From Enterovirga sp. (GTDB lineage Bacteria > Pseudomonadota > Alphaproteobacteria > Rhizobiales > Beijerinckiaceae): DNA of 64,000 bases. The stretch covers positions 10,496 to 74,495 of the forward strand of contig NZ_JAQGKF010000099.1 of assembly GCF_028290205.1 (NCBI RefSeq). Reading direction: 5' to 3'. This document shows positions 8,350 to 33,184 of the stretch, piece by piece (positions within the stretch are counted from its first letter, which is position 1; every line of letters begins with the position of its first letter). Both the position numbers and the translations under genes were made by a program. Below the pieces are notes generated by a model that worked only from the letters and a program-made list of their open reading frames with translations, was not told where the DNA came from and did not search any database.

Positions 8350-8625
8350 CTTGCCCAATTTCGCACGTGCCTGTGGCCGCGTGCCGGTTGGTGGGCATCC
8401 GGACAAGAGGCCGGACAGCCGCCAGGGTTTTAGGATCGATGCCGGAAGGGCGGGAGCCCCAAGGCGGCGATTCAGGTGGTAACACCGAACCCGACAACAA
8501 CCGGCAGCCGGAGGGAAAACCGGCGAACCCCGCACTCCACGGGGGACGCAGCTTGAAGCAACGACGGACGGGCTTTTTTGGTCTCGTCGGCCCTCCAAAG
8601 GCCGGCACCGAAGAGGCTTGTTTCT
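8350..8625 (+). ncRNA. speF-leader / alpha-r45-like cis-regulatory RNA (boundaries approximate)
   Basis: Long non-coding 5' region of an ornithine decarboxylase containing AGAGGCCGGACAGCCGCCAGGG, GGCAGCCGGAG...CCGGCGAACCCGCACTCC and GGGGACGCAGCTTGAAGCAACGACGGACGGGCTTTTTTGG, which match my recollection of the alphaproteobacterial speF motif. Confidence 0.7.
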
Positions 8626-8833
8626 CTTTGCCGGGCGTGCGGACGGGGCCTCCCCATCCAAACGAAGGCAGCATCTCGGGTCGAGGATCCGCGTCGTTCC
8701 GTGTCTCCAACGCACGGTCGCCGCACCGATTCGAACCCCGAAGACGCCGGGCGGGCAACCGCCTGAACTTAAATCCGAGGACAGGCGGCGAGGGCCGTCG
8801 CGCCTCGATTTGAACCTTTGTGGGAGAGCGCCG

Positions 8834-32351: not shown

Positions 32352-32418
32352 CGCCTGCGCTCCGGCGAAGGGCCACGGCGGGTCCGGTCGGTCGAGTAAC
32401 CATCTCGCGCGAAGGTCT

Positions 32419-32446
32419 TTGCCTCCCTGAAAACACGCCGTACGGT
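32419..32446 (+). promoter_or_regulatory. candidate sigma70 promoter for the tRNA-like RNA
   Basis: TTGCCT (32419-32424), 16-nt spacer, TACGGT (32441-32446), ending 8 nt before the RNA 5' end. Confidence 0.5.
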
Positions 32447-32454
32447 TGAGACGT

Positions 32455-32531
32455 GGCCCGATGGGGGAGTGGCGACTCGCAGGCGGTGCAACGCCGAGCA
32501 GCCCCGGTTCAAATCCGGGGTCGGGCCTCCA
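32455..32531 (+). tRNA. non-canonical tRNA-Cys(GCA)-like RNA (atypical or pseudo tRNA)
   Basis: GGCCCGA/TCGGGCC acceptor stem, T73-CCA, CCCCGG-TTCAAAT-CCGGGG T-arm, AGTGG D-loop-like segment, T-GCA-A triplet in a 6-nt loop closed by GGCG/CGCC. Confidence 0.75.
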
Positions 32532-32623
32532 GCGCTCGGGTCCAAGGACCAGCTCTCGCGATCCCCGTCGTCGAAGTCCGGTCAGCTCCCGATCTGGGCT
32601 GGGTCTAGGTGTCGGAGTGGGTG

Positions 32624-33184
32624 ATGCGGGCTCTCGCTGGTGTCGTCCTGGCGTTCGTGGCCGTGGCTGGAAGCGCCGCCGCCAGTGATCCACCGCTGCG
32701 CCCAGACCCTGCCCTGCGGCTGGCCCAGCAATCGCTCCGTCCGCCCACGCGGGCCCCCGCGGCCACCCCCGTGCCCGATGGCGGGCTCGTCGACGCGACC
32801 GATGCCGGGCGTCTGGCCGGCCTGATGCAGAGCTGGGGCTGGCTCGCCAAAGTGTCGAAGGACTCGGCCGGAGACCCGCGCATCGAGAGCAAGATCTCGA
32901 AAAGCACCTTCTCGGTGACGTTCTACGGCTGCGACAAGGGGCAGAACTGCACCTCGGTGTCGCTGGAGACAGCCTATATCGTCGAGCCGAAGGCCAGTCT
33001 CGAGACCATCAACAAATGGAACAGAGAGAAGCGCTGGGGCCAGGCTGCGCTGAATGTGCGCGGCAACCCGACGCTGTCTCTGGCCATCAACCTGGATCAG
33101 GGCGTCAGCCCGAAGAACCTGGAATCGACCTTCGAGCGCTGGCGCACCAACGTGACGGCCTTCGAACAGGCCATCGGCTGGTAG
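32624..33184 (+). CDS. secreted YbjN-domain protein
   Basis: Signal peptide; DSAGDPRI, FYGC...CTS, INKWN.EKRW, NL.QGVS. Confidence 0.8.
   Translation: MRALAGVVLAFVAVAGSAAASDPPLRPDPALRLAQQSLRPPTRAPAATPVPDGGLVDATDAGRLAGLMQSWGWLAKVSKDSAGDPRIESKISKSTFSVTFYGCDKGQNCTSVSLETAYIVEPKASLETINKWNREKRWGQAALNVRGNPTLSLAINLDQGVSPKNLESTFERWRTNVTAFEQAIGW

Follow-up and report, generated by a model that had tools for sequence, protein, structure and literature searches.

A tRNA-Cys-like RNA with a 13-bp acceptor/T stack and a small anticodon loop in Enterovirga and other Hyphomicrobiales

The locus and the element

The DNA analyzed here is a stretch of 64,000 nucleotides (the window) from the genome of an Enterovirga species. 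This genome (G000) is a metagenome-assembled genome (MAG) of 3.64 Mb that is 96% complete. A gene for a tRNA-Cys-like RNA of 77 nt lies on the forward strand of the window. This element is a conserved, structured, and transcribed paralogue of tRNA-Cys. Upstream of it are found htpG (−), an amidohydrolase gene (+), and an AtzH-like gene (+), and downstream are found the genes for a secreted YbjN-domain protein (+), YidB (−), and a GT4 glycosyltransferase (−). The boundaries of the element were taken from ARAGORN, from the Enterovirga orthologues, and from two family covariance models (R1 and R2), the first of which was built from the Enterovirga orthologue sequences. The sequence of the element is GGCCCGAUGGGGGAGUGGCGACUCGCAGGCGGUGCAACGCCGAGCAGCCCCGGUUCAAAUCCGGGGUCGGGCCUCCA. 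The features of the locus are listed below.

32396–32403 (+): CtrA-type motif GTAACCAT (TTAACCAT-like), about 58 nt 5′ of G1
32419–32424 and 32441–32446 (+): putative promoter, TTGCCT (−35) and TACGGT (−10) with a 16-nt spacer
32455–32531 (+): whole tRNA-Cys-like RNA gene, 77 nt, with CCA encoded
32455–32461 (+): 5′ strand of the acceptor stem, GGCCCGA, paired with TCGGGCC at 32521–32527 (7 of 7 pairs)
32464–32478 (+): D arm of the ordinary Cys type, with G10-C, G11·U, G12-C, and G13·A22; loop AGUGGCG, including G18G19
32481–32496 (+): anticodon arm AGGCG/CGCCG, with 4 bp and an A·G mismatch in the window copy
32486–32491 (+): hexaloop GUGCAA, with GCA at 32488–32490 (+)
32502–32520 (+): T arm CCCCGG-TTCAAAT-CCGGGG, with a 6-bp stem, loop UUCAAAU, and the extra pair C48-G65a
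32528 (+): U73, followed by the encoded CCA at 32529–32531 (+)
32532–32685 (+): 3′ trailer into ybjN (probable ATG at 32624), assigned from an RNA contig covering 32455–32685 and a YbjN Pfam match

A first-pass annotation, made from the sequence without database searches, had described a fully paired acceptor stem, U73, CCA, a perfect T arm, and the anticodon hairpin GGCG-[GTGCAA]-CGCC. All of these were found in the sequence as described. The call made by ARAGORN for the element is tRNA-??? with the 2-nt anticodon “gc”, which corresponds to a 6-nt anticodon loop. The Rfam tRNA model (RF00005; gathering threshold of 29 bits) recovers the tRNA-Arg of the window and gives no match to the element in a 301-nt slice even at E ≤ 10. 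Eight further family members were searched with the same model at E ≤ 1, and none was matched. Scores of 33.5 and 63.8 bits were obtained for a form with a 7-nt loop (from genome G011) and for a canonical tRNA-Cys copy, respectively. A known Rfam family was also considered for the element, and none was matched in the Rfam searches. These genes are invisible to the Rfam tRNA model, and annotation is likely to miss them or to label them as pseudo-tRNAs.

Logan contigs from soil metagenomes of three separate studies are identical to the element, with zero substitutions or indels. The hexaloop is thus not an assembly error, since the three independent assemblies agree and the loop is kept in the orthologues. 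An indel that would restore a normal cloverleaf, for which the first-pass annotation had suggested a check, is ruled out on the same grounds.

Family distribution and secondary structure

Orthologues of 77 nt occur in five further Enterovirga species at 83–94% identity, and the GUGCAA loop is present in all of them. Fifteen Enterovirga genomes were scanned with a covariance model. The variant was detected in G000, G001, G002, G004, G008, and G010, and a 79-nt form with a normal CUGCAAA loop was detected in G011 and G012. The same canonical loop is carried by another member, GEM2. The complete genome G014 contains no variant by the covariance model. A canonical tRNA-Cys was found in 13 of the 15 genomes, and the two genomes without a match (G007 and G012) are both incomplete MAGs.

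Model scans located the variant in other genera of the Beijerinckiaceae and in other families of the order. A specific DNA pattern was searched in one genome per species across 185,579 species, and 34 loci were obtained, all of them in Hyphomicrobiales. The hosts include Enterovirga (among them E. rhinocerotis DSM 25903 and strain CN4-39), Salinarimonas ramus, MAGs of Methylobacterium, and MAGs assigned to the Beijerinckiaceae or Hyphomicrobiales. A metagenome scan provided seven more members, and the family now comprises at least 45 distinct sequences. It is a previously uncurated family restricted to Hyphomicrobiales, and no account of such a family, or of a tRNA-like CtrA target, was found in literature searches. 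Plasmids, phages, and viral contigs were searched and no family match was detected. An origin from a mobile element, plasmid, or phage was rejected on the basis of these searches and of the lack of an integrase close by.

The canonical tRNA-Cys accompanies the variant in every checkable genome of the family to which the window belongs (Beijerinckiaceae in GTDB). This includes G000, where the canonical tRNA-Cys(GCA) is a 74-nt gene on contig C51 (1653–1726). The order-wide scan, which took in the f35, f42, and f28 genomes, used an E-value cut-off near the canonical score. The first-pass annotation had proposed that relatives be searched for the same deviations and for a separate canonical tRNA-Cys; the deviations recur in the Enterovirga orthologues and the canonical gene coexists with them. 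Mean pairwise identity within Enterovirga is 88% for the variant versus 96% for the canonical tRNA-Cys, and the substitutions in the Enterovirga variants are located exclusively in stems and junctions. The element evolves faster than the near-invariant canonical tRNA-Cys, by compensatory changes.

The secondary structure was tested by covariation in a 34-sequence family alignment, using a 7-bp acceptor stem, a 3-bp D stem, a 5-bp anticodon stem, and a 6-bp T stem. Of the cells in this alignment 97.5% are paired, and 16 of the 21 pairs have changed on both sides. The observed pairing and covariation were matched by 0 of 500 shuffles, and sliding the register destroys the pairing. The acceptor stem is paired in 99.5% of its cells, with changes on both sides in 6 pairs. 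All 5 pairs of the anticodon stem covary, and the sequences of this stem are wholly different between clades yet still paired. The D-stem pair 11:24 varies among GU, AU, and GC, in support of a Cys-type D stem. At the sixth pair of the T stem, formed by C48 and the extra G, 24 distinct sequences have C-G and 5 have G-C; one copy from E. rhinocerotis has A-U, and no sequence leaves this position unpaired. The variable region is short (4–5 nt).

Two alternative arrangements fit this evidence less well. The first-pass annotation had offered either an 8/5 or a 7/6 geometry for a stack of 13 bp. The 13 bp and the 7/6 geometry are upheld by the covariation. The 8/5 geometry is less well supported, because its eighth acceptor pair (U8·G) shows no covariation and is lost wherever C is the partner (4 of 28 cells), and the 7/6 geometry fits all members. 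The annotation had also proposed a 4-nt D loop within a GAGU-GGCG-ACUC hairpin. This hairpin is contained in the minimum free energy fold of the element's own sequence, but it is only 64% paired across the family, and mismatches predominate at two of its four pairs. The 4-nt D loop is rejected on these grounds. The cloverleaf is therefore of the 7/6 type, with a 13-bp acceptor/T stack, an ordinary Cys D arm, and a short variable loop.

The same alignment makes it very improbable that the element is a functionless pseudogene, left by the decay of a spare tRNA-Cys copy. The absence of the variant from the complete genome G014, the failure of standard tRNA models to detect the element, and the loss of CCA or GCA in some copies (in E. 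rhinocerotis, and ACA in place of CCA in one MAG copy) are what decay would produce. Decay is largely refuted by covariation, since each of the four helices has compensatory changes and these are seen in several families of the order. The loops, U73, G18G19, and the T loop are invariant, and the promoter motifs are kept in upstream DNA that is otherwise unalignable. The arms differ completely in sequence, which does not agree with recent horizontal spread of near-identical copies. The element is also transcribed, as described below. Random decay and the lack of a transcript had been named in the first-pass annotation as outcomes that would count against a retained RNA, and compensatory change and a metatranscriptome contig were observed.

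Four copies are present in E. rhinocerotis DSM 25903 (G009; loci L011, L018, L027, and L029), with the loops ACGCAA, GUGCAA, GCGCAA, and GCUAAA. CCA is lost in two of the four copies, and one of these two is also without GCA. On account of these losses the two copies resemble decaying duplicates. Three of the copies are located on small contigs adjoining RTX-repeat and SRAP genes.

The paralogy with tRNA-Cys is drawn from the parts that the two RNAs have in common. These are the first four acceptor pairs (G1-C72, G2-C71, C3-G70, and C4-G69), U8, the D arm from G10 to G13 with the AGUGG loop and G13·A22, the GCA anticodon with A37, a T loop of the form UUCRANU, U73, and CCA. The element differs from the canonical tRNA-Cys by three extra bases, located 5′ of position 33, in the variable loop, and as a G 3′ of the T stem. 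Its T stem thereby has 6 bp, its stack 13 bp, and its closed loop 6 nt, and unlike the canonical form it is not matched by the Rfam tRNA model. The promoter motif TAACCAT is present upstream of the element and is not found at the canonical tRNA-Cys gene.

The first-pass annotation had likened the element to tRNA-Sec. In tRNA-Sec the acceptor/T arrangement is 8/5 (in bacteria) or 9/4, the D stem has 6 bp, the D loop has 4 nt, and the variable arm is long (PMC7609411). The element shares with tRNA-Sec a non-7/5 arrangement and a total stack of 13 bp. The likeness does not extend further, and with its 7/6 stack, ordinary D arm, and short variable loop the element is not tRNA-Sec-like. The selC* tRNA-Cys and allo-tRNAs have 8/4 or 9/3 arrangements (12 bp), long variable arms, and 7-nt loops (Mukai et al. 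2017, PMC5389517; PMC7609411), and they are often linked to selB*/cysS* genes (PMC5389517; PMC7609411). The element resembles selC* tRNA-Cys in that a non-canonical body carries U73 and GCA in a genome that also has a normal tRNA-Cys. It differs from both tRNA-Sec and the selC* RNAs in its 7/6 stack, normal D arm, short variable loop, and shrunken anticodon loop. It differs further from the selC* RNAs in that no second CysRS was found, one CysRS (PF01406) being present per genome checked. No SelB-like open reading frame (ORF) was detected in the 96%-complete G000 using a crude scan with regular-expression motifs, and EF-Tu and IF2 were found. None of the RNAs described in reviews of non-canonical tRNAs (PMC7609411; PMC5389517) combines a 7/6 stack, a short variable loop, and an anticodon loop of 5–6 nt.

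A separate 76-nt tRNA-Cys was observed at loci L100–L102 (genomes G284, G357, and G442). It has a canonical acceptor and D arm, a 6-bp T stem, the loop CGGCAAA, and G33, and it is also missed by the Rfam tRNA model.

Anticodon loop, promoter, and transcription

The anticodon loop was compared in 45 distinct members. The loop has 6 nt in 33 members, 5 nt in 8 members, and 7 nt in 4 members, and 41 of the 45 thus deviate from 7 nt. GUGCAA is the hexaloop in 22 members, and AUGCAA, ACGCAA, GCGCAA, CAGCAA, and GUGCAG also occur. The pentaloop is CGCAA (8 members) and the heptaloops are CUGCAAA or CCGCAAA (4 members). GCA is found in 44 of the 45 members and is followed by A in 43 and by G in 2. 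Position 33, directly before GCA, is occupied by U in 30 members, by C in 12, and by A in 2. U73 is present in all intact members, and the encoded CCA is nearly invariant.

U73 and GCA are the major determinants for CysRS, and U73 alone permits the charging of a minihelix (PMC9976931). The first-pass annotation had named these two features as kept identity elements and had described the stems as intact and the decoding features as altered. Both statements are borne out across the family, in which the stems change by compensation, the loop length ranges from 5 to 7 nt, and U, C, and A all occur at position 33. The letters read by CysRS are frozen while the geometry read by the ribosome (7 nt, U33) drifts, and this is the pattern that would be expected of an RNA kept for charging or recognition, not for routine decoding.

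The same loops bear on an alternative in which the element is an atypical tRNA-Cys that still decodes. On the ribosome the 32:38 pair would open to leave a loop of 8 nt, with an extra base 5′ of U33, and GCA would read UGU and UGC. Such a tRNA would provide extra or specialized Cys decoding when CtrA is active. GCA and the purine at position 37 are conserved, as this alternative predicts, and several members have a 5-bp stem with an A-U or G-C closing pair, an arm like that of two 76-nt relatives (L103 and L104) discussed below. G011, G012, and GEM2 have the canonical CUGCAAA loop, and G011 scores above the Rfam tRNA threshold. In addition, tRNAs with 13-bp stacks such as tRNA-Sec do function on ribosomes (PMC7609411). 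However, the loop has changed length repeatedly (5, 6, and 7 nt), and 14 of the 45 members have C or A at position 33. Most members close the loop with a strong G-C or C-G pair, and opening the pair in the window copy would leave only 3 bp and a mismatch. A near-invariant canonical tRNA-Cys is present in the same genomes, and the complete genome G014 has no variant. Decoding is considered a rather unlikely role on this balance.

The CtrA-type motif upstream of the element is new and was unforeseen in the first-pass annotation. Sequences of the form [G/T]TAACC, TTAAC, or TTAAT appear between −75 and −45 at 24 of 43 non-redundant family loci, versus 0 of 19 canonical tRNA-Cys loci. Two members (L091 and L094) carry a full TTAA-N7-TTAAC box. 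The motif is found in none of the 46 other tRNA promoters of G000. In its ungapped form, the CtrA binding motif reads TTAACCAT (PMC6180460). There are 27 TAACCAT sites in G000, of which 22 are outside called ORFs. Among the genes downstream of TAACCAT in G000, 10 of 13 were scanned. The scanned genes are cpaB, flgB, amiC, flhA, fliF, and those for a MipZ/ParA-like ATPase, flagellin, a lytic transglycosylase, a polysaccharide exporter, and an OmpR-type regulator. These genes resemble a CtrA regulon, and the motif, which in G000 otherwise marks genes for flagella, pili, and the cell wall, fits a CtrA box. A CtrA orthologue is encoded in G000, at 83% identity to an approximate Caulobacter CtrA query.

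Two CtrA-like response regulators were observed outside the window, at C201:12380–13057 and C50:24830–25510, with 83% and 67% identity to the same approximate query. The genome may thus contain a CtrA paralogue.

The promoter TTGCCT-N16-TACGGT, which the first-pass annotation had placed upstream of the element, is present and is conserved in the closest orthologues. It is kept in the G002 and G004 orthologues as TTTGCA ... GTA(C/A)GGT, and a TAnnnT box located 7–9 nt 5′ of G1 recurs throughout the family. The −10 hexamer ends 8 nt 5′ of G1, from which a start within 0–3 nt of G1 is expected. A generic scan for the sigma-70 consensus did not pick up this promoter. A promoter of the extracytoplasmic function sigma-F type (GTAACC-N16-CGAA) was considered and rejected, its spacing being incompatible with the window sequence.

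An inverted repeat, TCACG-N4/5-CGTGA, was observed over the −35 element and spacer (about −45 to −25) in many clades, for example at L077, L079, L091, L094, and L096. This repeat is not in the promoter of the window itself, and it was matched to no known regulator.

Transcription of the element is seen in a soil metatranscriptome contig of 234 nt that covers 32455–32685. The contig begins at G1 with no upstream coverage and enters ybjN. It comes from the same study as the best holders of the DNA. The start of transcription is located at or adjoining G1. No intrinsic terminator was found between the element and ybjN. The listed ORF for ybjN begins with GTG at 32609. The strain in the metatranscriptome has a 1-nt deletion at 32619, and a signal peptide begins at the ATG at 32624; the start at 32624 is the likelier one for these two reasons.

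An RNA contig that reaches ybjN from G1 without crossing a terminator would also be produced if the element were a cis-acting 5′ leader of the ybjN mRNA. This is barely credible, since the genes downstream of the element and their orientations vary among genomes. In G001 and G010 a transfer-messenger RNA (tmRNA) gene is positioned tail-to-tail with the element; a second clade has a GT4 gene there, and a third has an SDR gene on the opposite strand. A terminator is also found directly after the element at several family loci.

Possible roles and genomic surroundings

The family and its structure are well supported. The sequence data are best explained by an RNA that is charged by CysRS, is not a routine decoder, and is controlled by CtrA, a combination that we regard as evenly poised between right and wrong. 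The single CysRS of the cell would charge the variant with cysteine. The variant would not be under selection as a routine decoder of UGU and UGC, because neither its loop geometry nor position 33 is constrained. CtrA would drive its expression and thereby tie it to the cell-cycle and motility program. The charged RNA might be used as a cysteine donor for a nonribosomal transferase, as a reporter of cysteine or CysRS status, or as a ligand that titrates CysRS.

Several observations weigh against this combination. The hexaloop can be described as a canonical loop with a Watson–Crick 32:38 pair and a base inserted 5′ of position 33, and 8-nt loops of this kind may in principle still read triplets. 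A 76-nt form at L103 and L104 (G394 and G421, genomes of 7–9 Mb) carries the arm GAGCA-GUGCAA-UGCUC on a normal 7/5 stack. TTAACC at −58 and a TCAC..GTGA repeat are located upstream of these two genes, which are also missed by the Rfam tRNA model. They are assigned to the same lineage as the window element because the arm and the upstream motifs agree. The likeness comprises the GUGCAA arm (6 bp and 6 nt), U73, CCA, and the upstream architecture; the differences are the 5-bp T stem, the 12-bp stack, and another D loop. The link to CtrA is drawn from the motif, and the RNA evidence is one assembled contig through the 3′ end, for which DNA carry-over is possible. Finally, no aminoacyl-tRNA-dependent transferase was found within about 4–6 kb of 35 loci, and no conserved partner gene is seen near the loci.

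In a further alternative, the element is a tRNA-shaped regulatory RNA or decoy for which the amino acid is not needed. It would titrate a tRNA-binding protein, either CysRS or another one (a nuclease, a toxin, or a modification enzyme), or its loop or 3′ trailer would be the active part. Regulators that resemble tRNAs exist, for example the tRNA-Other of B. cereus. The element has its own promoter with two conserved motifs (TAACC(AT), and TCACG-N4/5-CGTGA in many clades) and no conserved protein partner close by. It is accessory, and its copy number varies, with four copies in E. rhinocerotis. These properties suit a regulator, but the strict retention of U73, an encoded CCA, and GCA points to aminoacylation itself, and neither target complementarity nor a binding partner was identified. 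A role as a regulator or decoy is judged improbable, with some weight left to it.

A narrower form of the CysRS-charged reading was also formulated. The element would be a tRNA-Cys paralogue with a 7/6 stack and a small loop that is charged by CysRS, kept free of translation, and switched on by CtrA together with the genes for flagella, pili, and division. It would represent a new class of tRNA-derived RNA in Hyphomicrobiales, acting as a dedicated cysteine donor or as a signal of cysteine status in a nonribosomal process timed by the cell cycle. This proposal is put forward tentatively and is more doubtful than not. If correct, it would describe the first nonproteinogenic cysteine tRNA and the first tRNA-like member of a CtrA regulon. 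Extra tRNA copies that keep their charging signals and lose their decoding geometry are rare. The clearest cases are the glycine tRNAs that feed cell-wall synthesis, which revealed whole pathways for nonribosomal use of aminoacyl-tRNA. In Staphylococcus aureus, tRNA-Gly isoacceptors feed the FemXAB transferases (PMC9976931). By functional analogy only, the element may be compared with these isoacceptors as an extra isoacceptor in which the identity for the aminoacyl-tRNA synthetase is kept and the deviations are at sites read by translation factors and the ribosome. The S. aureus tRNAs differ in having a normal 7-nt loop, a 7/5 stack, and known transferases, whereas no transferase lies near the loci of the element.

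The family offers an entry point to whether tRNA-dependent cysteine chemistry exists in alphaproteobacteria and is linked to the cell cycle. It also offers one to how much change of the loop and stack is tolerated before CysRS, EF-Tu, and the ribosome reject a tRNA. Cultured hosts are Enterovirga rhinocerotis DSM 25903, Enterovirga sp. CN4-39, and Salinarimonas ramus CGMCC 1.9161.

The neighbors of the element differ between genomes, and a linked partner gene (ybjN, GT4, or others) was rejected for this reason. Elsewhere in the family the element is found beside genes for an ABC ATPase and HlyU, beside ffh and tmRNA, or with carB-greA upstream and GT4 downstream. In another clade, genes for a putative VWA/CoxE-like protein and a 174-aa protein are located upstream, and a putative SDR gene on the opposite strand is located downstream. 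The GT4 of the window and that of the other clade are 28–32% identical and are not orthologues.

At L052, L057, L066, L082, and L112–L114, in the clade with the acceptor GACCCG..., the element lies between carB-greA and GT4. The GT4 gene of this clade begins 27–34 nt past CCA on the same strand with no terminator between them, and the two are probably co-transcribed. In G001 and G010 (L005, 1144–1577, and L006, 1166–1577) the variant converges tail-to-tail on a tmRNA gene of the permuted, two-piece type. The 3′ ends of the variant and the tmRNA overlap by a few bases in the ARAGORN calls, and a bidirectional terminator hairpin is common to both.

A second call by ARAGORN in the genome, tRNA-???(gg) of 86 nt, lies outside the window at C219:1378–1463 (−). 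It has acceptor mismatches and no CCA and is most likely a false positive in GC-rich DNA. Two Rfam families were detected above threshold in the window. The alphaproteobacterial small RNA ar45 is located at 8353–8577 (+) with a score of 44.5 bits, and a speF leader is located directly 3′ of ar45 at 8585–8735 (+) with a score of 44.7 bits.

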